Positions 13,927-46,899 of a stretch of DNA of 64,000 bases are shown here, piece after piece. A program made the translations under genes and the position numbers. Each line of letters opens with the position of its first letter. The first letter of the stretch is position 1. This stretch comes from an uncultured Clostridia bacterium (GTDB lineage Bacteria; Acidobacteriota; Blastocatellia; UBA7656; JADIYM01). Location of the stretch: assembly GCA_964641945.1 (NCBI GenBank), contig CAZXLQ010000001.1:13725-77724 (forward strand). Direction: 5' to 3'. The notes below the pieces were generated by a model. The model searched no databases and was not told the origin of the DNA. It saw nothing but the letters and a program-made list of their open reading frames with translations.

Positions 13927-14156
13927 GCTACCGACATCTCGGTGCCGGACCGGCGCCCACCACCACCGACGAGATTTGCTTCCCGCGTGACGCGATCATG
14001 CGTCTTCAGCCTCGGGCCGCAGGACCGCTTCGCCATCTCGTCACCCTCACCGGCGGGTACCAGTCGGTGCCGATCTCATGGAACCGTGGGCTTCTCATCG
14101 TCGATCCGCGCTACGACAACCTTCCGCTCGGACCTGGTTGGGAGTGGCGCACGTGA
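13923..14156 (+). CDS. hypothetical protein
   Basis: ATGA overlap; 77 aa. Confidence 0.45.
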   Translation: MSYRHLGAGPAPTTTDEICFPRDAIMRLQPRAAGPLRHLVTLTGGYQSVPISWNRGLLIVDPRYDNLPLGPGWEWRT

Positions 14157-14731
14157 CGACCCCCATCGAAGTCTACACCGGAACGCAGGTCTGGATCGGA
14201 CGGCCAACCATTCGCCCAGCAAAGAAAGGCCGCGTCGAGCACGGACCGGGCCTCTACTTCACCACCTCCCTGACCACTGCCTTGAGGTACGCTCGTGGAG
14301 GGCGTACCGTCCTGAAGGTCGAGCTGGATCCGTCCATCTCTTGGCTCGAAGACGCGAAACTACCGGTTTCTGCGGTCATCCAGTGGCTCATGGAAAGGCG
14401 TGGCCTCCGGAACAGAAGCTTCATCATCGCCGATGTAATGGAGAACGCTCTTCGCACGAGGTCTCGCACTGGAGACATGGGTCTGATCTACGCCAACGCA
14501 CTGGTCAATCTCATGGTGAACTGGGATGCGATCACCGGCGATCACGGCCCAGCGCTTGCTGAGTTTCTTGTCTGGTATGACATTGACGCTTCCCACGTGA
14601 GCCAGTCGGGTGGCGAAGAGTGGATCGTCCTCTTCAATCCGAAGAAGGTGCTGCGCTGGGAGAAGGTTCACGTCGACCCAGAGACGCCATACATGCTGCC
14701 GCGAGTTCGCGGCAGTGAGAAGAAAGGGTGA
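14153..14731 (+). CDS. hypothetical protein sharing GxGLYxTT / E(Y/W)IV motifs with ORF 30885-31637
   Basis: GTGA overlap start; EHGPGLYFTTSLTTALRY .. GEEWIVLFNPKKVL. Confidence 0.5.
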   Translation: MTTPIEVYTGTQVWIGRPTIRPAKKGRVEHGPGLYFTTSLTTALRYARGGRTVLKVELDPSISWLEDAKLPVSAVIQWLMERRGLRNRSFIIADVMENALRTRSRTGDMGLIYANALVNLMVNWDAITGDHGPALAEFLVWYDIDASHVSQSGGEEWIVLFNPKKVLRWEKVHVDPETPYMLPRVRGSEKKG

Positions 14732-23806: not shown

Positions 23807-24682
23807 ATGGGAACGCAGCTTCTCCCCGGCGAGCGGGGAACGTACTTCAAGATGGACCCCGACGCTCTGGTGATCGTCGGTCTCGACACGCCTCACAAGT
23901 CCGGCGAGCACCCGCTCTGGGACGAACGCATTCTGCTGCCGCTCGATGAGTCCATGGTCAAGAACATCATGGCGCTCGGAGTTCAGGAGAGCGTGCGCGT
24001 CGAAGTCGAGAAGGGAACTGACGGGTCGAAGGTTCCCTACGTCGTCGACGGCCGCCGCCGCGTCATGCACGCACGCGAAGCCAACAAGCGGCTGAAGACC
24101 CTCGGAGAACCACCGGTCACTGTTCCGGTCATCGCGGAGAAGAACACCAACGCCGAGGACCTGTCCATGCTGACGATCTCGCTCAACGAGATCCGCAAGG
24201 ACGACCCGATGATGGTGAAAGCCGCCAAGGCTGGCCGCATGCAGGCGCGCGGGATGAGCACCAAGCAGATCGCCCTCGCCTTCGGCGTTGCCGCCGGCAC
24301 CGCTGATCTGTTCCTGCGTCTGAACGGAGCCCACGACGAACTGAAGAAGGCGGTCGCCGCAGACAAGATCACTGCCACGGCAGCCGGCAAGCTCTCCGAG
24401 CTGCCTCGCGACGAGCAGCCCGCTGCCCTCAAGAAGCTCCTCGACGAAGCCAAGGCCAGGGGCGAGAAGCGCGGCAAGGTGAAGGATGCGGCTGCCATCG
24501 CGACCTCGCGAAAGAAGGGCGGCGAAGCCCGTCCAGCGCCCGGGAAGCGCATCCTGCTGCGTGTGGTCTCCAACGGAACGAGCGTGCTGCACGACGAGTT
24601 CATCCGCGGGGTCCGGTTCGCCATGGGGGATCTCGATCCTCGCGCCGTCTCCGGACTCTCCGCTCTGATGACGAAGAAGTGA
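23807..24682 (+). CDS. ParB-like nuclease-domain / HTH protein
   Basis: ParB N-domain-like block PYVVDGRRRVMHAREAN and HTH MSTKQIALAFGVAAGTADLFLRL. Confidence 0.75.
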   Translation: MGTQLLPGERGTYFKMDPDALVIVGLDTPHKSGEHPLWDERILLPLDESMVKNIMALGVQESVRVEVEKGTDGSKVPYVVDGRRRVMHAREANKRLKTLGEPPVTVPVIAEKNTNAEDLSMLTISLNEIRKDDPMMVKAAKAGRMQARGMSTKQIALAFGVAAGTADLFLRLNGAHDELKKAVAADKITATAAGKLSELPRDEQPAALKKLLDEAKARGEKRGKVKDAAAIATSRKKGGEARPAPGKRILLRVVSNGTSVLHDEFIRGVRFAMGDLDPRAVSGLSALMTKK

Positions 24683-27338: not shown

Positions 27339-28012
27339 TGCCCAAACTCGTCTTCGTCTCCGATACACACGAGCAGCACCACGTACTCAACATCCCTCCG
27401 TGTGACATCCTCATCCACTGCGGAGACGCGACAGGCGTTGGGCGCGTCGATCGTCTGGAAGCGTTCAACGCATGGGCTCGACGGCTCAAGAAGATCGGAA
27501 TGACCAAAGAAGTCGTCTTCGTGGCAGGAAACCACGACGTGCTTCTCGACGCGTCGCATCCCGCGGTCAATCGCGACGATCGGACGCGTCGGCTTCATCG
27601 CATGGCCGTTGAGGCTCTAGATTCGGTGATCTACCTGAAAGACTCCGAGGCTACCATCGACGGTCTACGGTTCTGGGCCAGTCCGTGGACGCCACGGTTC
27701 TTGGACTGGGGCTTTCAGCTTGATGGCGAAGCGCATGCGATGGAAGTGTTCTCCCAGATACCACACGGGATCGACGTGCTGGTAACACACGGTCCCCCAG
27801 CCGGCATTCTCGATCTGTGCCCAGACGGCCGACGAGTTGGATCAAGCGCTCTACTCGAAGTCGTGCGCGATCGTCGCCCGAAGATACATGCGTTCGGCCA
27901 CATCCACCACAGCTACGGAGTCGAAGAAATCGACGGCATCAAGTTCGTGAACGCCTCCATCTGCACCGAGCAGTACCTTCCGCTCAACAAGCCGATCGTC
28001 ATCGAAGCGTAA
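27338..28012 (+). CDS. calcineurin-like metallophosphoesterase
   Basis: VSDTHEQHH, HCGD, GNHD, THGPP, GHIH metal-binding motifs. Confidence 0.8.
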   Translation: MPKLVFVSDTHEQHHVLNIPPCDILIHCGDATGVGRVDRLEAFNAWARRLKKIGMTKEVVFVAGNHDVLLDASHPAVNRDDRTRRLHRMAVEALDSVIYLKDSEATIDGLRFWASPWTPRFLDWGFQLDGEAHAMEVFSQIPHGIDVLVTHGPPAGILDLCPDGRRVGSSALLEVVRDRRPKIHAFGHIHHSYGVEEIDGIKFVNASICTEQYLPLNKPIVIEA

Positions 28013-28557
28013 TGCGTCGGCAGGCGTCCACGATATCTCTCGAAGAGGAGCTTCAGCTTGAAGCTCGCATTCTCTCTGCGCGGAGGCTTGGTGCGAAACC
28101 GGGCACCGTCAGGCGCCTCTGCCCGCTCTGTCACGACGTCTACTTCGTAGCCAGCGGTCATCGCGGCAGCGTCTACTGCAAGATGGTAGCGACTCGAAAG
28201 GCGTTGCTTGAGCGGCAACTCGCCGCCGTGTCTATGAACTACAAAAAATGGATGGACGAGCTGGGTGTCCCGTACGAGCTGCATGAGACCAGCTACAGCC
28301 GAGTCGAGAGGGGTGCCTTCAAAGGCATCGGCGAGCTGGAGACGCGGATGTGGGTTCCGATGACGGTTGCCAAAGCCGTCAGGCTGGTCGAGGAAACCGG
28401 ACGAACCGAGTTCGGTCCTACTTATTCGCTGTGCAGTATCGAGACTCGGCGAGCGCTCATCGCTGATCTGGTACTGAAGAACAAGGCTCAGTGGCTTCGA
28501 GAAGGAATCGGAACGCAAGGTCTTCTCACCGCATCAACTGACACTTCCCCAGCCTAG
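28012..28557 (+). CDS. hypothetical protein
   Basis: TAATG overlap; 181 aa. Confidence 0.5.
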   Translation: MRRQASTISLEEELQLEARILSARRLGAKPGTVRRLCPLCHDVYFVASGHRGSVYCKMVATRKALLERQLAAVSMNYKKWMDELGVPYELHETSYSRVERGAFKGIGELETRMWVPMTVAKAVRLVEETGRTEFGPTYSLCSIETRRALIADLVLKNKAQWLREGIGTQGLLTASTDTSPA

Positions 28558-28786
28558 CCATTGCTATCCGTCCTTCTCGGTCTCGACGCATGGACATCCT
28601 TCGATGGCGTTGCCTGTTAGGATCGACTCTTCGACGAAGATCACAGTCCAAGCACATCTCCGCCTTCCGAGGCTCACCACCGATGAAAGACCACTCGGGA
28701 GTGGTTTCGCCGCAGCAAACGCACACGGGGTTCCCCAGTCGCCTCAACGCCTGGAACCTCAACGAGGGCTTGGGACGCTTACGCAT
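28526..28786 (-). CDS. doubtful small Cys-containing ORF
   Basis: low complexity; convergent overlap with 28012-28557. Confidence 0.25.
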   Translation of the reverse strand: MRKRPKPSLRFQALRRLGNPVCVCCGETTPEWSFIGGEPRKAEMCLDCDLRRRVDPNRQRHRRMSMRRDREGRIAMARLGKCQLMR

Positions 28787-29549
28787 GAGCGGCAGAACCT
28801 GAAGCAACGCGCTTGAGGTACTCGTTCACCTGCTCGATCGTCAGCGGTGGGACGTGAACTTGGGTGTCAGTGTGCATGAAGCCCCAGCCAACGTCCGCGA
28901 CAACCAGGGTCCCGTCCGGACGACGCATGAGGTTGCCCGAGTGAACGTCTTCCCAGTCGATTCCCATCGAGTGCATCGCGTGGACCGCGTCGCTGATCTG
29001 ACGCAGCAGTTCGACACCGCGCTCCAGGTTGGGCGCCGTATTCATTCCGCTTTCCACGAGATCGTCCCTCAGGTAGCTCCGCCACTTGTCGAGCATTGCT
29101 CGATGCGATGGCCGCGGAAACTTCAGGTCGATGTCCATGTCGTTGTAGATGTCGAAGAGAATGTCGACCAGCGTCGAGTCTTTCTTCGAGAGCGGCGTCA
29201 TGTAGGACCGGTGAATCAGATACCAGCCGCGAAGACCTGGCTGATGCGAGCCCGTCACGACCCAGATGTTGTGGATGTCGACGATGTTCTTGTGCCTCTT
29301 GCCACGAAGCACGGCGGAGGCCTGAGCCTCGGACGGATCCCGAGTGAACTTCAGAACGGACTTGCCCCCGAGGTCCACTTCGTAGGCAGCGCCGAACGCT
29401 CCTTTGCCGAGCTTCTGCTTCACGGGGTCGGTGATTCCGAGTCGCTCGACGCAATCTCGATGCTTCAACATCACAAGCCCCAACGGCATGTGAGGCTCGC
29501 GGGTGATCTTCGAGAACGTGGAAGGGTAGCTGTAGGACTGGTCGATCAT
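28779..29549 (-). CDS. protein kinase-like (Ser/Thr kinase fold)
   Basis: Gly-rich loop LGKGAFGAAYEV, Lys in VLKF, catalytic HSGNLMRR, DVGWG. Confidence 0.7.
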   Translation of the reverse strand: MIDQSYSYPSTFSKITREPHMPLGLVMLKHRDCVERLGITDPVKQKLGKGAFGAAYEVDLGGKSVLKFTRDPSEAQASAVLRGKRHKNIVDIHNIWVVTGSHQPGLRGWYLIHRSYMTPLSKKDSTLVDILFDIYNDMDIDLKFPRPSHRAMLDKWRSYLRDDLVESGMNTAPNLERGVELLRQISDAVHAMHSMGIDWEDVHSGNLMRRPDGTLVVADVGWGFMHTDTQVHVPPLTIEQVNEYLKRVASGSAAHA

Positions 29550-29552
29550 GTC

Positions 29553-29579
29553 TGTCAGACACGCATCTTATGTCGGACA
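29553..29579. promoter_or_regulatory. paired operator-like sites TGTCAGACA and TGTCGGACA, 18 bp centre-to-centre
   Basis: divergent region between kinase gene and basic-protein gene. Confidence 0.45.
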
Positions 29580-29646
29580 GCCGTCTCCGCCAACACCCGG
29601 TGGGCTCTGGCTGCGGAATCAGTTAGGATAGGCCCCGGAGAACCAG

Positions 29647-29907
29647 ATGGCCTACCACATCCCGAAGCCACGTCGTCGCAAGAAGTCTCGCAAGACCAGC
29701 CGCCGCACCAGCAAGCACGGCTACATCGTCGTCGCTGGTCGAGGCCGAGGCCGCAAGTGCCTCAAGACGACCTTTCGATCCAAGGCGAAGGCTGCCGCGG
29801 CTGCTCGTCGCACCTCGAAGCGCACGGGGCGGTCGTGCCGGGTGCGACAGGTCGCGGTGGCAGCTCGCCGTCGTCGGACCAGTCGTCATCGCCGGACCAG
29901 CCGTTGA
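29647..29907 (+). CDS. highly basic small protein (Arg/Lys-rich)
   Basis: GGAGA RBS; GC3-rich codons; could be histone-like DNA-binding or a frame artefact. Confidence 0.4.
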   Translation: MAYHIPKPRRRKKSRKTSRRTSKHGYIVVAGRGRGRKCLKTTFRSKAKAAAAARRTSKRTGRSCRVRQVAVAARRRRTSRHRRTSR

Positions 29908-29915
29908 GGTAGCCA

Positions 29916-30866
29916 GTGAGCTACCGAGGACTTGGTCAGGCGAAGATCGTCCCTGGGCAGATCAACTTCGCAACCCTCCCGCCTGGCCAGACGGCGTTGC
30001 CCAGCCTCGAACCGTTGGTACGAGCGGGCCTGCCCATCGCGCCGTACATCGAACACGGAAGCTGGGAGACAGGAGAGCCGGCCATCATGCGCTACGGACT
30101 GGACCCATACCGGGGCATCATGGGGCTCGGCCAAGGCGGCGGTGCCGCCGAGGCACAGTCCATGAAGTTCGAGGTCGTGGTACCCGGCGAGCCCCGCGGT
30201 TCCTTTCTCTTCGAGGAGCTTCTGGAGGCCGTAGACGCTGCTGCCATGCTCCACGGGCAGAAGGGGCGGCAATCGCGAGTCGTGAGCCCACCGGGCTCTG
30301 AGAACATCGTGGCTGATGTCGACACGGCCGGCCGGGTCCGGATGCTTCACGGGCTGGGTCAGAGCATCGGACAGTCCATCCGACGCCTGGAGAACCAGTC
30401 CTACCGTGTCATTCCAGACACATGGGCTCGGACTGCTGCCGGAGCTGGTCGCTACGTCAGGGGGATGGACGCGGCCATGAAGACAGCCAAACGGCTCCTT
30501 CGTGAGAACCCCAGGACGACCATCAGGGTCTTCGCCGAGGGGACCGGGCTCATGATGCCCGGATCCGAGGTCGTGGCCATCCAGCGCCAGCCCGGTGGCG
30601 GCATCGACGTGCGATTCAACTACCATCTCTCTGGAGGGCTGGGACAGGCACTGACCGACCTGGTGTGCTCAGAGACCGCGGTGGCCGGCTCCTGGCGAGC
30701 CAGAGTGGTCGGAGGTCTCAATGCTGGCGCCCAGGCCGCCCTTCTGGGGGCTGCCGCAGCCGGCTTCATTGGGGCTCTGATTGGCAAGCCGGTCATCGCT
30801 GCCGCAGCCGGCGCAGCCATCGGATGGAGCGGGTACTCGATCTGGACGGCAACCTACCGCGTCTGA
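29916..30866 (+). CDS. hypothetical protein with C-terminal glycine-zipper membrane segment
   Basis: GAAAAGFIGALIGKPVIAAAAGAAIGW. Confidence 0.55.
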   Translation: MSYRGLGQAKIVPGQINFATLPPGQTALPSLEPLVRAGLPIAPYIEHGSWETGEPAIMRYGLDPYRGIMGLGQGGGAAEAQSMKFEVVVPGEPRGSFLFEELLEAVDAAAMLHGQKGRQSRVVSPPGSENIVADVDTAGRVRMLHGLGQSIGQSIRRLENQSYRVIPDTWARTAAGAGRYVRGMDAAMKTAKRLLRENPRTTIRVFAEGTGLMMPGSEVVAIQRQPGGGIDVRFNYHLSGGLGQALTDLVCSETAVAGSWRARVVGGLNAGAQAALLGAAAAGFIGALIGKPVIAAAAGAAIGWSGYSIWTATYRV

Positions 30867-30884
30867 CGCCCACACCGAGGCGGC

Positions 30885-31637
30885 ATGGCTCTCTACCACG
30901 GATCGAACGAAGACCTCGACGAGCTGGACGGCAACGAGCCCGGCTACACGGGCTCGCTCGGCTGGGGCCTCTACCTCACGACCGACCCGGAGTTCGCCAG
31001 GATCTTCGGCAAGCATATCTACGAGGTCGAGAGCCCGGTACCTGACGAGCTGGTGGCTCAGATCGAACCGATGTCCTACGACTGCGGCAACGACCTGACC
31101 TTCTACACGCCCGGTTCGACTCCGTTCTCCTTCGAGATCGTCGACCGCAAGACGGGAGAGACGCACCGCTATTCGGTGCTCGGAGACTGCGACGAGGAAG
31201 TTCGCCAGGACCTCCGCCGGTGGGCCCTCGATGAGTTCGTGCCGTCGCAGGAGCTGAAGGACGCCGTGAACAAGCTGCCAGCGGCGATCGCCTCCCGTGT
31301 CGGCGTCGGCGCCAAGGAGATCCTCGATGCGGCCAGCAAGGGGGAGCGTGTCGACGACGTCATCGACGCGATCCTCGACACGATGTCCGAAGAGGGTGTC
31401 GACGGGGACCTTCTCGACGATGAGATCAAGCCGCTACTCGAAGCGCTCGAACGGGAAATCGACGAGTTCGCCGACGAGAAGGTCGCCGAGCGCCTGGGTG
31501 ACGAACTCGATCTCGACGACATCTCGGCAATCGTCGAGCGCCACGGCTACAGCGCGTTCTTCATCGAAGGCTACGCGCCGGGCAACGAGTACGTCATCGT
31601 GGACGAGAAGTACCTACCGATCCCGGTGACCAAGTAG
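30885..31637 (+). CDS. candidate PARP-like (H-Y-E class) ADP-ribosyltransferase
   Basis: LYHGS, GWGLYLTTD and GNEYVIVDEKYL resemble PARP catalytic triad blocks (HGS / GIYFA / YNEYIVYD); acidic linker between; motif-level call only. Confidence 0.45.
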   Translation: MALYHGSNEDLDELDGNEPGYTGSLGWGLYLTTDPEFARIFGKHIYEVESPVPDELVAQIEPMSYDCGNDLTFYTPGSTPFSFEIVDRKTGETHRYSVLGDCDEEVRQDLRRWALDEFVPSQELKDAVNKLPAAIASRVGVGAKEILDAASKGERVDDVIDAILDTMSEEGVDGDLLDDEIKPLLEALEREIDEFADEKVAERLGDELDLDDISAIVERHGYSAFFIEGYAPGNEYVIVDEKYLPIPVTK

Positions 31638-31638
31638 G

Positions 31639-32337
31639 TCACAGGCCGAGAACGCGCGCCGCCCACTCCTCGTGGATGCAGACGATGTGCGCCTCGACGC
31701 ACGCCATGTTCTCCAACTTGGCGTAGACCGGACGCAACCCGTGACGTCGGTAGTGGGCACACCACTCCTCCAGCGTCTGCACCGTCACATGTGCCGGCTC
31801 CGGGTCTGGAAAGACGTGCGGCGTCACCGCTCCGACGATCCCGTGCGGTGCAAGAACACGCTTGATCGCCGACAGCGCTGCGTCGAGGTTGATGACGTGT
31901 TCCATGACATGGCGCGAGTAAATGAACTGCACCTGGCCGTCCCAGTCCGACGGCATCTCCTCGATCGCCAGATGACGCACGTTGAGGTGTGCCGTCCGCT
32001 CAGCAGCCTCCTTGACCACCTCGATGCCGCAGTAGTTCGCCTCAAAGCGCTGCATCAAGTAGTCGCGATCGCGTGCCGAGCCAGACCCGAGATCGAGCAC
32101 GCCGCGGTCTTCTCCCTCGATCTTCATCCCGGCGCGATGCTGACATCCGAGCATGGCGTCGACGATGAGCCGGCGGCTCTCTTCATCGCGTTCCAACCAC
32201 CACCGAACACGCTCATCCGGCTGCCCGACGTGCATCACCGCCATCCGCCGATGGTGGTCAGTGTTCAGCAACTCCAGGCGCGCTCGCTCGTTCGGATCCA
32301 TCTCACGCCTTCCGCAGCACGACCATGCGCTCGACAC
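31639..32337 (-). CDS. class I SAM-dependent methyltransferase
   Basis: VLDLGSGSARD motif I and downstream motifs. Confidence 0.75.
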   Translation of the reverse strand: MSSAWSCCGRREMDPNERARLELLNTDHHRRMAVMHVGQPDERVRWWLERDEESRRLIVDAMLGCQHRAGMKIEGEDRGVLDLGSGSARDRDYLMQRFEANYCGIEVVKEAAERTAHLNVRHLAIEEMPSDWDGQVQFIYSRHVMEHVINLDAALSAIKRVLAPHGIVGAVTPHVFPDPEPAHVTVQTLEEWCAHYRRHGLRPVYAKLENMACVEAHIVCIHEEWAARVLGL

Positions 32338-33073
32338 CGTCCATCATGACGGACTCGTCCGCAGGAACCTCGTGCCCATCGTACCCGATGTAGGAGCAGG
32401 AGAACCCCTCCACGACCAGCTCCTCCCAAAACCTACGCGGCGCGCTGTACCGTTGCGGAGACCACTCGATGACAGCTCGAAACCCGGGGTTGGTGCGGAT
32501 CTTCTTCATCCCTGCCCACACGAACGGCTCATGGCCCTCTGTGTCGATGACCGCGAAGGTCGCCTCCGGACAGACGTCATCGGCTCGGACGGCCTCCACG
32601 ATCTGCTTTCCTTCGGCGGAGATCGCGCTGTTCATGCTCATGCCGTCGTCACGCATGTTGAACTTGCGCTGACCGGGCGCGTCGCTTGCGACAGCTCGAA
32701 CCACAGTCGTGTACGGATGGAAGCCGTTCAGGTGCATCGAGTGCTCGATGTTTCTGGCGTGAGTCTCGTTCGGCTCGATCGCAACGATGCGACCCATGCT
32801 GCCGACCTGCCGCGCCATCATCACCGAGTAGTAGCCGCAGTTCGCTCCGATGTTGACAGCGGTCTCCCCCTTCTTGAGGTTGTTCAGAATCCAGACCGTC
32901 ACCCATGATTCCCAGAACCCGTCGAGCAGCAGGTGAGGGGCCAGACCGCGATCGGAGGTGTCCAAGATCATCCGCAGTTCGCCGAGCACGACGGCCAGGG
33001 CCGTCTGCTTGCCCAGGTACACCGACCTCGCTCCCGCTCGACTCGACGCCTCGACGTTCGCGACTGTCGCCAT
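32303..33073 (-). CDS. FkbM-family methyltransferase
   Basis: VNIGANCGYYSVMMA..RIVAIEPNETHARNIE..LNG. Confidence 0.7.
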   Translation of the reverse strand: MATVANVEASSRAGARSVYLGKQTALAVVLGELRMILDTSDRGLAPHLLLDGFWESWVTVWILNNLKKGETAVNIGANCGYYSVMMARQVGSMGRIVAIEPNETHARNIEHSMHLNGFHPYTTVVRAVASDAPGQRKFNMRDDGMSMNSAISAEGKQIVEAVRADDVCPEATFAVIDTEGHEPFVWAGMKKIRTNPGFRAVIEWSPQRYSAPRRFWEELVVEGFSCSYIGYDGHEVPADESVMMDGVERMVVLRKA

Positions 33074-33591
33074 CAGCTCTTCCTCGGCGGCAGGTCGCTG
33101 ATGTCCACGTCGGATGCGGGTGGCAGATCGTCTCTGCGTCCAGGGACGTGCTTGTCATCCTGATGAGCATCGAGAGTCGAGTTCGGCATGACGCCTCCCA
33201 TCATCGTCTGGATGCGCTCCCCGGCCTTGTCGAGGAAGACCTCCGCTGCCTCTCCGAACTCAGCGCGCCTGTTGTCGCGAGCACGCTGGGCGATCGGCCT
33301 GAACTCATCGCCGCCGAGGCTGTCGTATGGACGGAGCATCTCCAGGCCGCAGCCGCTGCACGGGCCCGTGTAAGAACGAACATCGCCTCCGAGAGCTTCG
33401 ATCTCGTCCTTCTCGAAGCGGAGCGTTTTGTCCCATCCGCACTGGATGCAGACGAACCGACACTCGTCCGGCAGAGCCTCACCGGCGATTCGGCGAGCCA
33501 AGCGAGCGGCGTCTTCCTTCGACTTCAGCGCCAAAGCGGCGCCGGAGCTGGGAACGTCAGGACGGAACCCGGGAACGTCATCCTCGGCCAT
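33073..33591 (-). CDS. zinc-ribbon hypothetical protein
   Basis: CIQCGW..CSGCG. Confidence 0.5.
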   Translation of the reverse strand: MAEDDVPGFRPDVPSSGAALALKSKEDAARLARRIAGEALPDECRFVCIQCGWDKTLRFEKDEIEALGGDVRSYTGPCSGCGLEMLRPYDSLGGDEFRPIAQRARDNRRAEFGEAAEVFLDKAGERIQTMMGGVMPNSTLDAHQDDKHVPGRRDDLPPASDVDISDLPPRKS

Positions 33592-33784
33592 TCTTCTTCT
33601 CCTTCTTGGGCTCGAACTTCTCGATCAGGTAGTTCAGCACGGCCGAGATGTTCGGCTTGTTCTTGGCGTTCATCCACCCGCGCTCGCGCGCCAGCCCGAC
33701 GAGCTTCTCGAAGTTGGACACCGTCGAGCGAAACGACAGCCGAACGCTGTGGGTTTCTTCCTTCTCATCGGGCTCGGTCGACAT
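33578..33784 (-). CDS. small hypothetical protein
   Basis: 68 aa. Confidence 0.4.
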   Translation of the reverse strand: MSTEPDEKEETHSVRLSFRSTVSNFEKLVGLARERGWMNAKNKPNISAVLNYLIEKFEPKKEKKNGRG

Positions 33785-34077
33785 CAGAGCACCTTGCTCA
33801 TCGCCCGGACCATGAAGAGGTCCTCACCGCGAAGGTAGATCAGCGATGCCGCCGGACCTGCCGGAGTCGGCATCGTTGTCCTGAACTCCCAGACGTCGTC
33901 CGAGCCCAGCTCACGGAAGCTCTGCGCTGTGAACGCCACCAGGGTGTTCGCCGGCACGGACATCGCCTTGCCGTCCGGACCTTCGACCGTCGAGATGTTG
34001 AAGTCGCTCACCCTCGTGAGGATCTCGATCGGACCCTGACCGTTCAGGTTGCGCAACGCGATGCCCATCGACGCCAT
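33784..34077 (-). CDS. hypothetical protein
   Basis: 97 aa. Confidence 0.45.
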   Translation of the reverse strand: MASMGIALRNLNGQGPIEILTRVSDFNISTVEGPDGKAMSVPANTLVAFTAQSFRELGSDDVWEFRTTMPTPAGPAASLIYLRGEDLFMVRAMSKVL

Positions 34078-34078
34078 T

Positions 34079-35176
34079 TCAGCCTCCTTCGACCCATGTT
34101 CGGAGTTTCTCGACCCACTGCGGGAGCGCCCATTCCCAGGTGCCCCAGTTGCCCTGCTTCTCGAAGTCCATCGAGTTGCGAACCTGCATCGCGTGAACGT
34201 TGAGCCTGTTCAGGCCGCGATCCAGACAAGCTCCCAACAGTCCGACATCGATCACTGGTGCCATCCCGTTCTCGTACGCGAGAGGGGCGTCGAATGGAGA
34301 AGGGATGCACATCCATCGCCCCGGCCAATCGACGAGGAACTCTGCGTGCCCAGTGTTGCATGTCGTCAGCAAGGGAACACCGGCTACCAGCGCCCCGCTG
34401 ATCATCATGCCGTACCCCTCACAGCGAGACGGGGAGATCACGAGATCCGCTTCTTCGTAGAGCCGCGACAGCGACTCGTCCGACTCTCCGCGAGCTTCAC
34501 CACACCGGAACACCACGTCGTCGCTCAGGTCGTGGTCGGCGATCTTGTAGAGGACACCCTTTTGAAGGGCGCTTGGGCCATGGATGACGAGCTTTGCGTG
34601 CGGTCGCACGTGAGCCCAAGCCTCGATCAGCTCCTCGGTGCCCTTTCGCCCAGGCCAGGCGAAGTCACTGGTAAAATGGACCGCCGTGAGGCAAGGGCTG
34701 CCCTGAACGCACTGGGCCCTGAGCCAGCGCTGCTTGCTGTCCGAAGGGACCGGACTCCCGAGAGGAAGCACGCTGGCCACGAAGTCGCTGTTCTCGATGT
34801 CATCAAGCGCTCGCAGACAGAACCTCGATGGAGCGATGACCGTCCCGAACTTCGCGATCGTCGTCAGGTACTCCTTGTCCATCTCAGTCGTGTTGGGGCT
34901 GATGAAGATGGCCGACCGGTCCCTTCCTCTCTGCTCGGGGAAAGAGCTGAGGTAGTGGTGCGGCACGGCGATCACGAGAACATGCGTGCCGTCGCGCGGG
35001 TCCTCGGCGACGCTCCTCCACCGGTCATGAAGTGCCGGGTCAAGGTTGATCACCCGCCCGAGCATGCCCTCATGCCTCAGCGCCTCCGCGACGCGCCCGG
35101 CGACAGACGCGTAGGAGTGCATGGTGCCGAAGTGTCCGACGATGTCGATCACGCGAGCTTCCACTCCTTCACCCAC
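34079..35176 (-). CDS. GT4-type (GT-B) glycosyltransferase
   Basis: C-terminal EGYGMMISGALVAGVPLL (E-x7-E region). Confidence 0.75.
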   Translation of the reverse strand: MGEGVEARVIDIVGHFGTMHSYASVAGRVAEALRHEGMLGRVINLDPALHDRWRSVAEDPRDGTHVLVIAVPHHYLSSFPEQRGRDRSAIFISPNTTEMDKEYLTTIAKFGTVIAPSRFCLRALDDIENSDFVASVLPLGSPVPSDSKQRWLRAQCVQGSPCLTAVHFTSDFAWPGRKGTEELIEAWAHVRPHAKLVIHGPSALQKGVLYKIADHDLSDDVVFRCGEARGESDESLSRLYEEADLVISPSRCEGYGMMISGALVAGVPLLTTCNTGHAEFLVDWPGRWMCIPSPFDAPLAYENGMAPVIDVGLLGACLDRGLNRLNVHAMQVRNSMDFEKQGNWGTWEWALPQWVEKLRTWVEGG

Positions 35177-36510
35177 TCTTCAGGGACGATGCGGCTCAGC
35201 CCCGCCCTCACCGCCGGCAGGCAGCTCTCTGCGCTGAACATCTCACGGGTGGCCGAGGCTGCGGCGCGGTCGAGATACCGGCCTCGGTCGAACTGGGTCT
35301 GCATCCCTGCTGCCAGGTCGTCCAGCTTGTAGGTGCCCCACCGCGTTCGCTTGTCGAACATGAGAGCGATGCGAGCGACTTCTGGGCCGACCTCGGTGAG
35401 CTGGTAGGGGAAGGTGGTGTCTCGGGTCGATCCGGACTTCTGACGAATCTCCTCGACCATCTGCCCGACGGCACCGTAGGCGCTCGTGACCATCGGCACC
35501 CCCTGAGCTTTCGCCCAGACATGCGGAATGCCAAGGCCCTCCCCGTAGGACGGGTTCGCGTAGCAGTCCAAGTCGCCGAGCCACTCGATGACCTGCTGGT
35601 CCGTCTGGTCGGTCCCCAGCTCGAAGCCGATGCGAGGCATCTTTCCGGACATCGGAAACCCAGAGTCACCGAACTCTTTCGCGATCTCCGCGATCTCCGC
35701 CGTGAGCTTCTCCTTGAACTTCTTGATGGTGAGGTTTTCACCGAATGCGCTCGTCTTGAGGACGAGCTTCACCGGCTGCTCGCGAGCAAACGCCGAGAAG
35801 TAGGCTCGCACAAGATCGTGCATGCCCTTCCGCTTCTGCCACGTACCAAGCACGCCGAAGATGAATGGATCGTCATGCGTGACCGGCCGATTCTTCCGCT
35901 CAGCCAACACGTCGAGTGCCGTCATCGACCATGGCCCCTCCGTCAGCATCGGCCTGACCACGTGGACCACGCTTGCCGGAACGTTGGACTGGACGAAAGC
36001 GTCACGAACGAACTCGCTCACGACCCAGATGCCAGCAAAGACCGGACCGGTCGCGAGGCTCCGGCAGTAATCCGAGACCCGATCGCCCTCGAACGCGCAG
36101 TACGGGACGATCTTCGGCGCCATCTCCTCCATCTCCACGGCCACCTCGGGCGGCCACGAGCAGAACAGCGCCTTCGGATGCCCAACGCCTTCCTTCACCC
36201 ACTGGAAGAGCAGGTCGTATCGGTCGGGCGGAAAACGCTCGATGTCGATGTCCACATTGCGATGCGGCACCAGCGCCGTCGGGATCCCAAGCGACCGCGA
36301 GAGCATCCACTGTAGCGACAGCGCGTGCGTCGCGTACCCCGTACGATGATGGCTTCCCCACGTGTGCCAGAGCCCATGCACGTCGTACCCGGGAGCCGGC
36401 GGCGCGACGTAGTCGCGGAACTTCTGCCCCGTCGGACGCATCTGCGACGCAACCAGCGCCTCGAACTCTTCTGGCGTCCGATCCTTGTATTCCTGGTACT
36501 TGTCCGACAT
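35149..36510 (-). CDS. glycosyltransferase-like protein (GT-B, family 1/4-like)
   Basis: YGEGLGIPHVWAKAQGVPMVTSAYG. Confidence 0.6.
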   Translation of the reverse strand: MSDKYQEYKDRTPEEFEALVASQMRPTGQKFRDYVAPPAPGYDVHGLWHTWGSHHRTGYATHALSLQWMLSRSLGIPTALVPHRNVDIDIERFPPDRYDLLFQWVKEGVGHPKALFCSWPPEVAVEMEEMAPKIVPYCAFEGDRVSDYCRSLATGPVFAGIWVVSEFVRDAFVQSNVPASVVHVVRPMLTEGPWSMTALDVLAERKNRPVTHDDPFIFGVLGTWQKRKGMHDLVRAYFSAFAREQPVKLVLKTSAFGENLTIKKFKEKLTAEIAEIAKEFGDSGFPMSGKMPRIGFELGTDQTDQQVIEWLGDLDCYANPSYGEGLGIPHVWAKAQGVPMVTSAYGAVGQMVEEIRQKSGSTRDTTFPYQLTEVGPEVARIALMFDKRTRWGTYKLDDLAAGMQTQFDRGRYLDRAAASATREMFSAESCLPAVRAGLSRIVPEEWVKEWKLA

Positions 36511-38896: not shown

Positions 38897-39382
38897 TCAC
38901 CCGGCCCGGCTCGTTCGGCGCTTTCGTGCGGGCTTCTGACGCCCGACTGGGCGACTCGTTCGACGACGTGGCTTCACATCTCCTGGCAGCAGCGACGCGA
39001 GCGACCTTCTGACCCTGAGCGAGATGATTGGTCGCACCGGCTTGCCGCTCTTCCCGAGCACTGCGACGCACCGCCCAACAGGGCTGACCACGGCGATCAG
39101 CAAATCGAGCAAGCTGTCGCCAAACTTCTGCGCCTCGTAGGCGGCGTACTTGAGGGCCGTGCGGCGGTCATAGACCTTTGCCGAAAGTACGTGCGGCTTC
39201 GCCCACAACGAAGCGGCTCCGGCATCGTCGACTCGGAGAAAGACGACCTTGTACACCTGACCTTCTGGCTCAGCCTGCCGAACCGGCACCGCATCGACTT
39301 CGGGCGTCTCTTCCTCAGCCGGCACTTCGGTCTCATCCATGAGGTCGGATGTACCACTTGTCTGACAGCAGATGCAAGCCAC
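38897..39382 (-). CDS. hypothetical protein (start uncertain)
   Basis: 161-aa ORF. Confidence 0.45.
   Translation of the reverse strand: MACICCQTSGTSDLMDETEVPAEEETPEVDAVPVRQAEPEGQVYKVVFLRVDDAGAASLWAKPHVLSAKVYDRRTALKYAAYEAQKFGDSLLDLLIAVVSPVGRCVAVLGKSGKPVRPIISLRVRRSLASLLPGDVKPRRRTSRPVGRQKPARKRRTSRAG
39359..39367. promoter_or_regulatory. TGTCTGACA operator-like site
   Basis: at 5' end of minus gene 38897-39382. Confidence 0.4.
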
Positions 39383-40037: not shown

Positions 40038-40406
40038 CTAGGCGCCCAAGCGCTTGAGTGCCATCAGCGGCCTGACGGATCTCCGCAGCTTGTGAAGCGC
40101 ATTGATTGCCTTCGCGAGCTTCTGAGCTTCGTACGCGTTCCAGGTCTCACGACGACCCTTCTCATTCGCCCGCGAGCGAAACTCTGACAACCCAACGAGG
40201 AGCTTGTCGACGACAGGAAGCATCTCCGCGAACTCGTTCTTCGGTCGGTCCCACATGCTTTTGAACAAGTCGACCGTCCTCAACAACCCTTGCGCTGAAA
40301 CGCCGGACTGCTGCTGAGCGCGTACCAGAGCGATGCGAAGGTCGGAGCCGATCAGCCAACCCATCTCCCGGCAGATTGCCTTCTCTTCGTCCGACACGGT
40401 CATCAA
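40038..40406 (-). CDS. hypothetical protein
   Basis: 122 aa. Confidence 0.5.
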   Translation of the reverse strand: MMTVSDEEKAICREMGWLIGSDLRIALVRAQQQSGVSAQGLLRTVDLFKSMWDRPKNEFAEMLPVVDKLLVGLSEFRSRANEKGRRETWNAYEAQKLAKAINALHKLRRSVRPLMALKRLGA

Positions 40407-41089
40407 AGCCCTCGACGGCCGAAAGAACGCAGAACCGAAGCGATGCTCTCCAGCTTGGAGACGATTCGCAGCTCAGGCGCCAGCCTGTACATCAACTCAG
40501 GCTCAGTCGGCTCGGGCATGTAAACAACGAGTGGCCTGCCTCTCCCAGCGAACCACCCAGCTTCCAGATGAGCGCTCTTGCCGCAGTCGAGCACCAGGAC
40601 CACCGCATCAGCAGACCGCATGCCTTCGTAATCGGCATCAAACGCACGCTGGGCCGATGGATGCGTGAGCGCTTTCCCCAAGACCTCTGCGCTCCATGGC
40701 TTCGGCCCAGCAACGTCTACCCAGCGAAACCCAGACTCGTCGCTGCGAAAGTCGTAGACATCGAACCCATCAGCACGCAGCGCGCTGACCACCGCGGGCT
40801 GGTGGATGTTCTTCCACGAAGACGCAACGTATATGCTCTGCGGTGCGCGGCGCGTCTGATCGCTCAAGAGCGAGGCCAACCGTTGCGCACACGCTGAGCA
40901 CCCCGGAACGTTCATCTCGTAGAACGCAACGACCGCGTGAGCAGCCGACCCAAAGACCCTCTCACCCTTCTCCGGGACCCGACCGCACCACGTCAACGAC
41001 TGCAAAAAGCAGTGGTCCTCCAGCCCGCGCGTGATGGAGTCTGGTCCGCAGTCAGGCGGCAATCCTCGCAAGATGCAGAGAGGCCTCAC
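40403..41089 (-). CDS. hypothetical protein, possibly nucleoside 2-deoxyribosyltransferase-like (flavodoxin-like fold)
   Basis: IYVASSW..ADAVVLVLD..EAGWFAGRGRPLVV pattern; weak. Confidence 0.45.
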   Translation of the reverse strand: MRPLCILRGLPPDCGPDSITRGLEDHCFLQSLTWCGRVPEKGERVFGSAAHAVVAFYEMNVPGCSACAQRLASLLSDQTRRAPQSIYVASSWKNIHQPAVVSALRADGFDVYDFRSDESGFRWVDVAGPKPWSAEVLGKALTHPSAQRAFDADYEGMRSADAVVLVLDCGKSAHLEAGWFAGRGRPLVVYMPEPTEPELMYRLAPELRIVSKLESIASVLRSFGRRGL

Positions 41090-43416: not shown

Positions 43417-43441
43417 GGTTCTTTCGACGGAGTCAACCAAG

Positions 43442-43512
43442 TTCGGGGAGAGGGACTCGAACCCCCGTGAACTGGACCAAGGCCAGTCGTCCTGCCGCTA
43501 GACGATCCCCGA
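43442..43512 (-). tRNA. tRNA (anticodon loop CCTTGGT; TTG, Gln-type, C33)
   Basis: acceptor 7/7, T-loop TTCGAGT. Confidence 0.6.
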
Positions 43513-43513
43513 G

Positions 43514-43584
43514 CGCAGCGTGCGGGAGTCGAACCCGCCTGGCGTCGGTGAAAGCGACGCGGCCTCCCGGAAGCCCAACGCTGC
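43514..43584 (-). tRNA. tRNA-Glu(TTC)
   Basis: acceptor 7/7 (43515-21 vs 43578-84), T-loop TTCGACT, loop CTTTCAC. Confidence 0.75.
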
Positions 43585-43597
43585 ATCATCCAGATAG

Positions 43598-43670
43598 AGC
43601 CCCGAGCCGGTCTCGAACCGGCGGCCCCCTGCTTACAAGGCAGGTGCTCTGCCAACTGAGCTATCGGGGC
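43598..43670 (-). tRNA. tRNA-Thr(TGT)
   Basis: acceptor 7/7, loop CTTGTAA. Confidence 0.75.
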
Positions 43671-43851
43671 GGTTTCGTTCTTCACGCCATCGGTCAAGAA
43701 TCGCAGCCGTCTCACGCGTCGCAACGAAAAGCCGCACGGAGAGGCACGACTCGCACTGCCTGTCGCCAGAGTACGACGGCAGGACCCCTTCGTGCCCAGT
43801 GCGACCACACTTCTCGCAGATCGAGTAGAACTCGTGCCAGTAGTCGATCAT
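43633..43851 (-). CDS. doubtful small Zn-binding ORF whose 3' end overlaps tRNA-Thr
   Basis: CEKCGRTGH..CESC; overlap with tRNA 43598-43670. Confidence 0.25.
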   Translation of the reverse strand: MIDYWHEFYSICEKCGRTGHEGVLPSYSGDRQCESCLSVRLFVATRETAAILDRWREERNRPDSSVGRAPAL

Positions 43852-43867
43852 TCGACGAACTGTATCA

Positions 43868-43940
43868 TGCCGGTTGCGGGAGTCGAACCCGCCTGCTCCG
43901 CTTTACGAGTGCGGTGCTCTCCCACGAGAGCGTAACCGGC
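43868..43940 (-). tRNA. tRNA-Thr(CGT)
   Basis: acceptor 7/7, loop CTCGTAA. Confidence 0.7.
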
Positions 43941-43977
43941 GTATACTGCATGCGATGAGGCCCACCGCGACAGAACG

Positions 43978-44166
43978 ATGCGAATGATCTCAACGGCGAG
44001 AACGAGTCTGCTCGACGCTCAGTACGCGCTCGGAGCGATCTCCCGCTACTCACCCGAGGCCGCCGCGCTCCACAAGATCATCGTCGAGACCCGGAAGACC
44101 GTCGAGCGAATGCGTGTCGTCGACGCGCAAACCATCTCGCCCAACAAGAGGCGGAAGCGGCGCTGA
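43978..44166 (+). CDS. doubtful small ORF between tRNAs
   Basis: 62 aa. Confidence 0.3.
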   Translation: MRMISTARTSLLDAQYALGAISRYSPEAAALHKIIVETRKTVERMRVVDAQTISPNKRRKRR

Positions 44167-44239
44167 CGTCCCGTACGCGAATCGAACGCGTGTTTCCAGG
44201 TTGAGGGCCTGGCGACTTGAGCCGCTGGTCGAACGGGAC
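44166..44239 (-). tRNA. tRNA (anticodon loop CCCTCAA; CTC, Glu-type, C33)
   Basis: acceptor 7/7, T-loop TTCGATT. Confidence 0.55.
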
Positions 44240-44560
44240 ATCACGGAGACCGGAAGGCTCGAACTCCAACGCCTTGCGACGTCGCACCGGGTAGCGGCCG
44301 GGCCCAGCACCACCTGCTGGTTCAGTCTCCAAGCGGAAGAAGGAGGTCACGATCCCCAACGCCTTGCGACGCCGCTCCGCTTTCGAGGCGGACCCGGTCC
44401 CCGACCGGTTCTTCTTCCAAGCGGAGAGCGGAGGTCCTGACCCTCAGCGCCTTGCGACGCCGCAACCGCTTCCAACGGTACCCGAGCCCCGCTCGGTTCG
44501 CTCTCCATGGAGAAGTGGGGGCACGATCCCCAGCGCCGAAACGCCCATCGGTGTTCAAAG
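44240..44560. repeat. three or four degenerate ~90-nt tandem units with palindromic core CTTGCGACG(Y)CGC and tRNA-fragment-like GGTCACGATCCCC
   Basis: cores at about 44266, 44356, 44444; partial copy at about 44520. Confidence 0.6.
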
Positions 44561-44942
44561 CCGTGTCGAGCCCAGCTCGATTCCTTCTCCAGTCGGTGAT
44601 CCGTTCGAGTCCGGCGTCTACACACCTGAGTTACCAGCCCAGGACGCCTCAGCAGAAGTCGATTGTTCGGTCACGATCCTCCGCCGCCTGGCCGGGCGAC
44701 TTCAACGGACCGGAGGGACTCTACCCCCAAGGCGCAAAGCACTGGTTCATGATTTTCGCGCCAACCGCATTGACCAAGGGCCAGGAACCTCGCCGACCGG
44801 CGCCCAAGGTCTCACGTACCGTATCTTCCTCTGCTGTACGACACACCCGATTCCCCGAAGCGCTGCCTTGCCCGCCGTGCCAGCGTGCGTCTTCAGCCAT
44901 GGGTAGAAACCGGACTCGAACGGATCACTTACATTCTCACCT

Positions 44943-45455
44943 TCACGCAGCCTTGCCGAAGTAGGGCCGCCATGCCTCAGGGACAGCCCTGAGATCGAAC
45001 TTCTTGGGAACCACCGGAAGCCAGACAGGCTTCTTCGGCTGCCTGAGCAGCTTCATCTTCGCCTCCTCCGGCGTCCGGTTGCCCTTCTTCGAGTTGCACG
45101 GATAGCAAGCCGCGACGATGTTGTCCCATTCCGTACGACCACCTCGCGAGCGAGGGATGACGTGGTCGTAGTTCAGCTCGTGCGCCTCGAAGTCACCGCC
45201 GCAGTATTGACACTGGTGCCCGTCGCGGAGCAGCACGTTCGCGCGAGAGAACTTGATCGACACCTTCTTTCCGCGAGCCTTCCGCACCATACGGATGATC
45301 GACGGCATGTGCATCGCGACCGACGGGGAGCGGATCACCTCCGACGTCGCCTCCACGACCTCTGCCTTTTCGTCGTAGAGCAGGCAGATCGCCCGCTCCC
45401 AGGAGACGATCCGACTTGGTTGGTAGAACGAATCGAGGACGAGTACGCGCTGCAT
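44943..45455 (-). CDS. HNH endonuclease
   Basis: DGHQCQYCGG..YDHVIPRSRGG..WDNIVAACYPCNSKKGN. Confidence 0.75.
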   Translation of the reverse strand: MQRVLVLDSFYQPSRIVSWERAICLLYDEKAEVVEATSEVIRSPSVAMHMPSIIRMVRKARGKKVSIKFSRANVLLRDGHQCQYCGGDFEAHELNYDHVIPRSRGGRTEWDNIVAACYPCNSKKGNRTPEEAKMKLLRQPKKPVWLPVVPKKFDLRAVPEAWRPYFGKAA

Positions 45456-45472
45456 GATCTGGCTCCGTGATC

Positions 45473-45545
45473 TGCGGACCGTCGGAGTCGAACCGACACT
45501 GAGCGGTGTTTGAAGCCGCTGCCTCTGCCGTTGGGCTACGTCCGC
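45473..45545 (-). tRNA. tRNA (anticodon loop TTCAAAC; CAA on a short-variable-arm scaffold, identity unclear)
   Basis: T-loop TTCGACT, acceptor 6/7. Confidence 0.5.
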
Positions 45546-45559
45546 GTTGAGGTTGGTCG

Positions 45560-45587
45560 ATAGTAAGGTTCGTGTCTGACAAGTCAA
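45560..45587 (-). promoter_or_regulatory. promoter TTGACT-N16-TACTAT with TGTCAGACA in spacer, upstream of tRNA 45473-45545
   Basis: minus-sense cttcTTGACTtgtcagacacgaacctTACTATcgacc. Confidence 0.5.
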
Positions 45588-45594
45588 GAAGCGA

Positions 45595-45668
45595 TGCGCG
45601 AGGACGGATTTGAACCGACACTTGCTAGGTTCTTAGCCTAGTGCCTCTGCCAGTTGGGCTACCCGCGC
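45595..45668 (-). tRNA. tRNA (anticodon loop CTAAGAA; identity unclear)
   Basis: T-loop TTCAAAT, acceptor pairs with one G-U. Confidence 0.5.
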
Positions 45669-45670
45669 GT

Positions 45671-45744
45671 TGCCGACGAGTGGATTTGAACCACCACTGG
45701 GTACGGTCTGAACGTACTGCCTCTGCCAGTTGGGCTACATCGGC
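45671..45744 (-). tRNA. tRNA (anticodon loop TTCAGAC; CAG on a short-variable-arm scaffold)
   Basis: T-loop TTCAAAT, acceptor pairs with one G-U. Confidence 0.5.
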
Positions 45745-45750
45745 GTGGAG

Positions 45751-45824
45751 ATGCACGACCAGAGATCGAACTCTGCTGGGGCGACGTGTGAGATCGCTGC
45801 CGTCTCCAGACGGCTCGTCGTGCA
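45751..45824 (-). tRNA. tRNA-Val(CAC)
   Basis: acceptor 7/7; imperfect T-stem; loop CTCACAC. Confidence 0.6.
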
Positions 45825-45924
45825 GGTTCAGATCGTCATCCGTGTCGCGCACACCTCGGCCGTGGCCACGGCCGCCGGACTCCTAGCCGGGACTGATGAC
45901 GATCCGGTTCGGTCCGCGGACCGA

Positions 45925-45996
45925 TCGGGCTGGCCGGACTCGAACCGGCAACTACTCCGCCCCGAACGGAGTGGGGTACCTTTCCCCTACAGCCCG
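45925..45996 (-). tRNA. tRNA-Pro(CGG)
   Basis: acceptor 7/7, T-loop TTCGAGT, loop TTCGGGG. Confidence 0.75.
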
Positions 45997-46077
45997 GAAG
46001 TCTGGGTGGCCGGTTCCGCCCCGGCGGCCTCGTGCTCCCCGAGCACGCGCTCTGCTTGCTGAGCTACACCCAGATGA

Positions 46078-46779: not shown

Positions 46780-46789
46780 GACGCGTGGC

Positions 46790-46892: not shown

Positions 46893-46899
46893 CAGAAGA

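Follow-up and report, generated by a model that had tools for sequence, protein, structure and literature searches.

A predicted H-Y-E ADP-ribosyltransferase with a variable acidic insertion, encoded by a large uncultivated phage

Introduction

To our knowledge, few phage ADP-ribosyltransferases (ARTs) have been characterised, namely Alt, ModA and ModB of phage T4 and AcrIF11. Such enzymes act by catalysis, whether they reprogram the host or disarm it, and small amounts are therefore effective. Here, two candidate members of the superfamily are described from a stretch of 64,000 nucleotides (the window) of the metagenomic contig CAZXLQ010000001.1 (assembly GCA_964641945.1). The main subject is the open reading frame (ORF) termed ORF-A; a second ART-fold protein of the same genome is termed ORF-B. 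ORF-A is probably a standalone, soluble mono-ADP-ribosyltransferase of the H-Y-[E/D] clade that depends on nicotinamide adenine dinucleotide (NAD+) and has a split core, with an insertion that would choose the substrate.

The early reprogramming of host proteins during T4 infection involves Alt, ModA and ModB (PMC5512222, PMC9503650). They are functional analogues of the activity proposed for ORF-A, but belong to the R-S-E active-site clade, and no sequence or specific structural match to them was seen. AcrIF11 (AcrF11; PDB entries 6KYF and 8DWQ) is an experimentally validated ADP-ribosyltransferase with the key residues H-F-H-D (PMC12421852). It has been suggested that its poorly conserved helical region determines the target specificity; in one AcrIF11 homolog the catalytic residues D146-E147 are located in a loop (PMC12421852). 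According to the same authors, the way in which ARTs choose their substrates is an open question (PMC12421852). In the ART-PolyVal family (PF18760; Tox-ART-HYD2 clade), the active site includes a histidine on strand 1 and a tyrosine on strand 2 (PMC5512222).

ORF-A differs from AcrIF11 in several respects. The corresponding residues are H-Y-F-E, and the protein has 250 residues, including an insertion of 100 residues and an extra hairpin, compared to the 137 residues of AcrIF11. The sequence similarity of the two is not significant, and no CRISPR connection was found for ORF-A.

Catalytic motifs and family of ORF-A

ORF-A (Table 1) has an ATG start preceded by GAGG at a distance of 7 nt. Its GC content at codon position 3 (0.86) is the highest among the long ORFs of the neighbourhood. 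The protein sequence begins with MALYHGS, followed later by GSLGWGLYLTTD and then by GYAPGNEYVIVDEKYLP. An earlier note on this DNA had proposed the protein as a candidate ART of the PARP and diphtheria-toxin type on account of three motifs. All three, LYHGS with H5, GWGLYLTTD with Y30 and the C-terminal block GNEYVIVDEKYL with E235, are present exactly as quoted there.

A search of 5.8 billion proteins identified 36 full-length homologs of ORF-A (44-93% identical), all of them derived from metagenomes and none bearing a functional name. In the alignment of 34 family sequences, which comprises ORF-A and 33 homologs of 44-92% identity, H5, Y30 and E235 are invariant, although the mean column identity is only 31%; thus, the motifs are not due to chance. 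Further invariant positions are G6, G26, G28, A38, G42, G233, C67 and C102, with the invariance of the two cysteines being a property of the close family only. The helix that follows strand β2 contains the sequence A38-x-x-F41-G42. The aromatic F41 is located 11 positions past Y30, a spacing which we take to match that of Y54 and Y65 in diphtheria toxin and of Y896 and Y907 in PARP1. Because of this +11 spacing the layout of ORF-A is denoted H-Y-[Y/F]-E. The protein has a net charge of -38 and an isoelectric point of 4.1, and net charges across the 34 family members range from -15 to -45.

The same signature extends to remote relatives. A hidden Markov model of the ORF-A family retrieved 132 relatives from 1.84 billion representative proteins (library-wide E <= 1e-3), some of which are multidomain proteins of 1,000-3,600 residues that match in several places. 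In these distant relatives the strand-1 histidine is found in 118 of 123 sequences and the strand-2 tyrosine in 125 of 127, while the glutamate is present in 47 of the 47 whose C-terminal part can be aligned. Past strand 2, the helix reads A-x-x-[Y/F]-G.

Comparison with curated families relates ORF-A to two members of the ADP-ribosyl clan in Pfam. DUF3990 matches residues 1-41 with E 3e-4 (20.9 bits, cutoff 32.2) and ART-PolyVal matches residues 2-48 with E 3.8e-4 (21.7 bits, cutoff 31.2). At E <= 0.01, ART-PolyVal is matched by 23 of the 34 family members and DUF3990 by 12. In a Pfam scan of 102 of the 132 profile relatives, 42 proteins matched ART-PolyVal (best value 1.6e-66), 19 DUF3990 and two PARP. 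Genuine ART-PolyVal domains above the Pfam cutoff are present in P0121 (229 bits, five copies), P0138 (195 bits), P0134 (49 bits) and P0137 (33 bits), and the ORF-A profile detected proteins of this type with values of 1e-10 to 5e-8. The PARP domain itself (PF00644) matched neither ORF-A nor ORF-B in Pfam at E up to 1. For the two ART proteins PADLOC gave only weak matches (E >= 0.007; candidate models PDC-M10A and PDC-M13A/B), of which the PDC-M13A/B matches are common to ORF-A and ORF-B and are uninformative when taken alone.

Relatives with similarity to both halves of ORF-A (P0084-P0099) have no PF18760 match at all, and PF18760 matches are restricted to more distant relatives that share the N-terminal half only. 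Therefore, judged by profile comparison, ORF-A represents a separate, unannotated family whose N-terminal half appears homologous to domains of the ART-PolyVal and DUF3990 type. A placement of ORF-A as close kin of ART-PolyVal was rejected, as ten full-length relatives were checked and are devoid of a PF18760 match.

The likeness to ART-PolyVal consists in the significant similarity of the N-terminal half and in the phage origin, and several both-half relatives (P0087, P0099, P0100 and P0131) are embedded in giant multidomain proteins. ART-PolyVal differs, however, in that it has been described with an aspartate on strand 5, whereas the ORF-A family has an invariant glutamate. Furthermore, it is part of a polyprotein delivered with the virion, whereas ORF-A is a single-domain gene among early and DNA-metabolism genes. 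DUF3990 (PF13151) shows sub-threshold N-terminal matches to ORF-A and to members of its family and also matches wider relatives of ORF-B, but only about 41 residues align to ORF-A and DUF3990 itself has no assigned function.

Some homologs of ORF-A are longer than the window protein. P0007 and P0015 have about 115 additional residues at the N-terminus, P0031 and P0033 about 120 at the C-terminus, and one of these extra terminal domains matches Pfam YunG. The ART of this family is thus a module that has been built into several architectures.

Predicted fold of ORF-A

An AlphaFold2 model of ORF-A, computed with the family alignment as input, has a predicted local distance difference test score (pLDDT) of 94.6 and a predicted template modelling score of 0.84. 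According to DSSP, H5 is located in a strand formed by residues 2-7, Y30 in a strand of residues 28-32 and E235 in a strand of residues 234-238, while residues 100-204 form a block of helices. A fold search with the model gave scores of 7.3 for ParT, 7.1 for MbcT and 6.9 each for the Res toxin and the ADP-ribosylating toxin SAIP. Diphtheria toxin (6.8), exotoxin A (6.2), AcrF11 (6.6, 21% identity) and Tpt1 (6.0) were also found, as were PARP4 (6.8), PARP15 (6.7), tankyrase-2 (6.3) and PARP1 (6.1). In a Foldseek search of the PDB, AcrF11 (6KYF) was the only entry with a substantial probability (0.84, E 0.07).

The predicted fold is thus ART-like and, together with the invariant H/Y/E residues, bears out the class proposed in the earlier note. 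Within the H-Y-[E/D] clade of diphtheria toxin and the PARPs, ORF-A probably sits nearest to the group of ART-PolyVal, DUF3990 and AcrIF11.

The acidic helical insertion

The long acidic insertion that had been noticed in ORF-A is real. Compact relatives of 155-180 residues align to ORF-A with a probability of 99.6% (hhalign, E 1.5e-24) over residues 1-104 and 204-250. They are gapped opposite residues ~105-203, and this region is therefore an insertion without a counterpart in the compact proteins. It is helical and carries a net charge of -15. It is also the least conserved part of the protein: here the commonest residue has a frequency of 0.42 on average, compared to 0.73-0.76 in the other three segments.

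In the predicted structure the insertion sits where ARTs bear variable helical elements, and it is proposed here as a target-recognition module. The family consensus is G-D-E-Y, with G-N-E-Y in the window protein. Both the insertion and this consensus parallel the published picture of AcrIF11.

ORF-B, a second ART-fold protein

ORF-B has a GTG start preceded by GGGAG, and public assemblies hold an identical called product of 192 residues. Its model (pLDDT 90.3) has an ART fold as well, with fold-search scores of 7.8 for exotoxin A, 6.7 for diphtheria toxin, 6.4 for both PARP15 and PARP4, 6.0 for PARP1 and 5.8 for AcrF11.

The two proteins had been taken for paralogs that share their motifs. 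ORF-B does contain GPGLYFTT and GEEWIVLF (as part of GGEEWIVLF), but its strand-1 histidine is replaced by threonine. No similarity between ORF-A and ORF-B is detectable in a pairwise comparison (BLASTP E 0.64), and direct alignment of the two profiles reaches a probability of only 35% over the first 57 columns. Comparison of the ORF-B family with a broad set of ORF-A relatives yields a probability of 95% (E 3.4e-8) and pairs YTGT with YHGS and GPGLYFTT with GxGVYxT. What stands of the claimed relationship is that both have ART folds and belong to the same clade at profile level, and close paralogy does not hold. By these comparisons, ORF-A and ORF-B appear to be distant members of one clade.

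After profile search the ORF-B family comprises 216 proteins. ORF-B itself has no match to ART-PolyVal in Pfam; among 79 distant members, ART-PolyVal and DUF3990 are matched by 22 each (E <= 0.01). Of 120 aligned members, 77 have histidine and 39 have threonine at the strand-1 position, and the threonine-bearing proteins are exactly the closest relatives of ORF-B. Y35 (119/120), Y46 at the +11 position (117/120) and E155 (113/120) are almost always retained. With respect to the H-Y-E triad, ORF-B thus possesses the fold and the tyrosine and glutamate positions and lacks the histidine.

On sequence grounds, ORF-B can be placed in an H-Y-Y-E family, within a derived T-Y-Y-E subclade in which histidine was exchanged for threonine. 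The conservation of Y/Y/E despite this exchange suggests that NAD+ chemistry persists in altered form, with a non-catalytic role as a realistic alternative. Diphtheria toxin, exotoxin A and the PARPs differ from ORF-A and ORF-B, which have no Pfam PARP or toxin match and no translocation or regulatory domains; moreover, diphtheria toxin and PARP have the histidine that is threonine in ORF-B. Both proteins would work in the manner of AcrIF11, ART-PolyVal and the ARTs of the diphtheria-toxin class. Since every threshold test failed, they fall outside all curated families, and it is best to regard ORF-A and ORF-B as representing two new families of the known ART superfamily.

The neighbourhoods of ORF-B homologs are variable, and no conserved partner gene was found in those compared. 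In the window, genes for a DUF3850 (ASCH-like) and a DUF192 protein come after ORF-B. A DUF192 gene is also located 2.4 kb from the ORF-B homolog in locus L011, and the distant ORF-A relative P0099 (1302 residues) is a fusion of DUF192, GGACT and ART. The DUF192 neighbours and this fusion may reflect a functional link between DUF192 and ARTs.

Proposed function and alternatives

Binding of NAD+ and transfer of ADP-ribose by ORF-A are very likely. By analogy with solved ARTs, NAD+ would be held by H5 (strand 1) and Y30 (strand 2) with the help of F41 at the '+11' position of the toxins and PARPs, and E235 at the start of the catalytic strand would activate the transfer of ADP-ribose. The fast-evolving acidic helical insertion splits the core and would select the substrate. 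Because of the extremely negative charge of ORF-A, a basic or nucleic-acid-binding host protein is proposed as the most likely substrate, for example a defence component or a part of the transcription or translation machinery. The chances are about even that the acceptor is indeed a protein, probably such a host factor, chosen through the insertion. The purpose of the modification may be host takeover or counter-defence. ORF-B would be a second, distant ART-fold protein of the same genome and an altered or weakened enzyme. A more specific version is rather unlikely: ORF-A would be an anti-defence enzyme of the AcrIF11 type whose hypervariable, DNA-mimic-like insertion docks to a nucleic-acid-binding immune protein of the host, which the H-Y-E core would then inactivate through ADP-ribosylation; the T-Y-Y-E subclade of ORF-B would have a shifted acceptor or chemistry, and the two would constitute two new counter-defence enzyme families of large uncultivated phages.

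Several observations weigh against ORF-A being such an enzyme. It reaches the threshold of no curated model, and both Pfam matches are confined to residues 1-48. The NCBIfam scan gave no match for ORF-A, nor for ORF-B. Searches of the PDB with the profiles A2, A4 and A5 returned no ART, and the only ART found with the A1 family profile was AcrF11 (6KYF) at a non-significant E of 0.4, in an alignment that pairs LFHGS with LYHGS and GLF with GLY. The placement of the triad in the model is that of the DSSP strand assignment. The catalytic histidine is lacking in ORF-B (T9). An all-against-all comparison of the regions within 6 kb on either side of five divergent ORF-A homologs found only the ART in common. 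Finally, no homologs are present in cultured phages, as seen in searches of 50,697 GenBank phage records with positions 28000-33000 (blastn) and with both proteins (tblastn).

Other activities of an ART fold have to be weighed against the transfer of ADP-ribose to a protein. ORF-A might modify nucleic acid in the style of DarT, pierisin/ScARP or Tpt1, or take part in the modification of phage DNA together with the adjacent methyltransferase/glycosyltransferase block. This is very unlikely, as a net charge of -38 with every segment acidic is unfavourable for binding a polyanion, and the block is convergently transcribed and not found beside the ART in the loci L005, L006 and L008. It is highly improbable that ORF-A is an NAD+ glycohydrolase or another NAD+ consumer, or that it transfers NAD-capped RNA like T4 ModB: its conserved residues fit the H-Y-E pattern of transferases and not R-E-S, there is no adjacent conserved partner resembling an antitoxin, and a phage that has to replicate a large genome would presumably pay a high price for draining NAD+. 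One or both proteins could also be binders with a non-catalytic ART fold. Loss of the histidine accompanies inactivity in some members of the PARP family, and threonine occupies this position in ORF-B and in 39 of its closest relatives, which makes such pseudoenzymes more plausible for ORF-B. Nevertheless, Y35, Y46 and E155 are almost invariant in the threonine subclade and all catalytic positions are invariant in ORF-A, so that this explanation is distinctly unlikely. The nucleic-acid, NADase and pseudoenzyme explanations are thus disfavoured by an extremely negative charge, a signature of the H-Y-E and not the R-E-S type, and catalytic positions that do not vary.

The earlier note had furthermore suggested that a kinase-like gene, a very basic protein and ORF-A could form one host-takeover module. 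In one version of this module, the kinase would phosphorylate RRTS and the ART would modify the same target. The genes lie within a short stretch (28779-31637), a relative of 171 kb has both kinase and ART, and the RRTS/RTSR motifs agree with the consensus of a basophilic kinase and reappear in the tails of ART homologs. However, the co-occurrence is seen only in this closest lineage (one phage, loci L004 and L007; 56% identity for the kinase and 68% for the ART), where descent alone predicts shared synteny. No kinase homolog is present within 6-8 kb of the ART in the four more distant loci L005, L006, L008 and L009. The kinase-like gene is encoded on the opposite strand, divergently oriented, and the basic ORF is a singleton that is absent from the relative. 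The module, for which proximity is what speaks, is therefore regarded as unsupported, and the chance that it exists is very small.

The ORF-A family combines a clear catalytic signature with a separable, fast-evolving insertion and would be a convenient system for studying how ARTs choose their substrates. In the ORF-B subclade, the natural exchange of His for Thr makes it possible to ask to what extent the strand-1 histidine is essential. ART genes as such are expected in large phages; the features of note are the insertion and the threonine variant.

Genes around ORF-A

Table 1. Positions of ORF-A, its segments, ORF-B and other features in the window
Feature	Position	Strand	Description
ORF-A	30885..31637	+	H-Y-(F/Y)-E ADP-ribosyltransferase-fold protein (predicted), 250 residues
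ORF-A residues 1-60	30885..31064	+	N-terminal half of ART core; β1 with LYHGS (H5, 30897-30899), β2 with GLYLT (Y30, 30972-30974)
ORF-A residues 61-104	31065..31196	+	Conserved loop and β-hairpin (PF-x-F ... Y-S-V), common to compact relatives
ORF-A residues 105-203	31197..31493	+	Variable acidic all-helical insertion; helices, gapped in compact relatives
ORF-A residues 204-250	31494..31634	+	C-terminal half of ART core; helix, strand SAFFI, loop EGYAPG, strand (N/D)-E-Y-V-I with E235 (31587-31589)
ORF-B	14153..14731	+	ART-fold protein (predicted), second family, 192 residues; T9 (14177-14179), Y35 (14255-14257), Y46 (14288-14290), E155 (14615-14617)
DUF3850 (ASCH-like) and DUF192 genes	14736-15412 region		Follow ORF-B
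Kinase-like gene	28779..29549	-	256 residues; sub-threshold Pkinase, motifs by direct reading
Very basic ORF	29647..29907	+	86 residues, net charge +34, isoelectric point 12; rich in RRTS/RTSR; first ORF of plus-strand run
316-residue protein	29916..30866	+	Gly/Ala-rich hydrophobic C-terminus; 18-nt gap before ORF-A
Methyltransferase/glycosyltransferase block	31639-36510	-	Converges on ORF-A
Protein with basic C-terminal tail	38897-39382		K/R-R-T-S-R motif
Nucleoside 2-deoxyribosyltransferase-like gene	40403-41089	-	
tRNA array	43441-50041	-	27 tRNA genes
HNH endonuclease gene	44943-45587		Within tRNA array
TnpB/IS605 OrfB-like gene	50434-51669		After tRNA array
ParB-like protein	23807-24682	+	
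Tyrosine integrase	57826-58947	+	
PcfJ-like protein	116-1780	+	PcfJ-like domain and pentapeptide repeats
PcfJ-like protein	58952-60415	-	PcfJ-like domain and pentapeptide repeats

ORF-A is the last of three ORFs in a plus-strand run, preceded by the basic ORF and a protein of which only the ends are conserved in the nearest relative. The kinase-like gene and the basic ORF are present upstream of ORF-A as the earlier note had described, but the former is a minus-strand gene separated from ORF-A by 1.3 kb and two genes, and the latter is doubtful as a gene. The basic ORF forms a singleton cluster, gene calling passed over it in one identical contig, and the nearest relative lacks it; its status is therefore uncertain.

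The kinase-like protein remains below the Pkinase cutoff (E 7e-5, 22.7 bits, cutoff 31.7). It matches PADLOC PD-T4-6 with E 1.3e-5 and kinases in the PDB weakly (E 0.006-0.05). Motifs read directly from the sequence are a glycine loop GKGAFG (residues 48-53), a lysine in VLKF (residue 67), D-V-H-S-G-N resembling a catalytic loop of the form D-x4-N (residues 201-206) and a DFG-like D-V-G (residues 219-221).

A toxin-antitoxin arrangement of the RES-Xre, DarTG or ParST type and a fixed operon were considered for ORF-A and rejected, since no conserved adjacent partner is present in five loci. A scan of positions 28500-32500 for promoters and terminators revealed no sigma-70-like sites, and terminator-like sites were within noise.

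Basic K/R-R-T-S-R motifs fill the 86-residue ORF and are also found in the C-terminal tail of another window protein. Tails with such motifs occur on one ORF-A homolog (KRTSRRPKRTSRRPKRTSRRS) and on eight ORF-B homologs (...LPRVKRTSRP); the homologs with such tails are P0003, P0040, P0043, P0045, P0054, P0061, P0063, P0064 and P0200. The motifs could represent a shared signal or a basophilic kinase site.

Downstream, the minus-strand block that converges on ORF-A encodes two S-adenosylmethionine-dependent methyltransferases and two GT4 'conflict-system' glycosyltransferases. It is kept in the nearest relative and is a candidate cluster for DNA or surface sugar modification. The nucleoside 2-deoxyribosyltransferase-like gene is located further along.

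Less than 5 kb from the ART, homologous NUDIX-domain proteins of about 480 residues are encoded in the two divergent loci L005 (13257-14798) and L008 (9002-10414); such a gene is not present in the window. NUDIX enzymes are able to process ADP-ribose.

Phage context

ORF-A relatives are present on IMG/VR viral contigs of 66, 139 and 171 kb, and none was found in the representative genomes of 185,579 species. ORF-A and its relatives are accessory genes of large uncultivated phages. The window belongs to a contig with 62% GC that matches metagenome contigs of up to 78.8 kb in Logan and NCBI. The 27 tRNA genes of its single array cover most amino acids, and an array of this kind is characteristic of large phage genomes. 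A non-exhaustive scan of the window ORFs revealed no gene for a capsid, portal or terminase protein.

Further genes of the window encode SNF2 and UvrD helicases and a Dam methylase; for the UvrD helicase, only phage matches at about 28% identity were found. The tyrosine integrase and the ParB-like protein suggest a temperate or plasmid-like lifestyle. The tRNA array is interrupted by the HNH endonuclease gene and followed by the TnpB/IS605 OrfB-like gene. Two further proteins, each with a PcfJ-like domain and pentapeptide repeats, are paralogs of each other and are encoded in opposite orientation at the two ends of the window.

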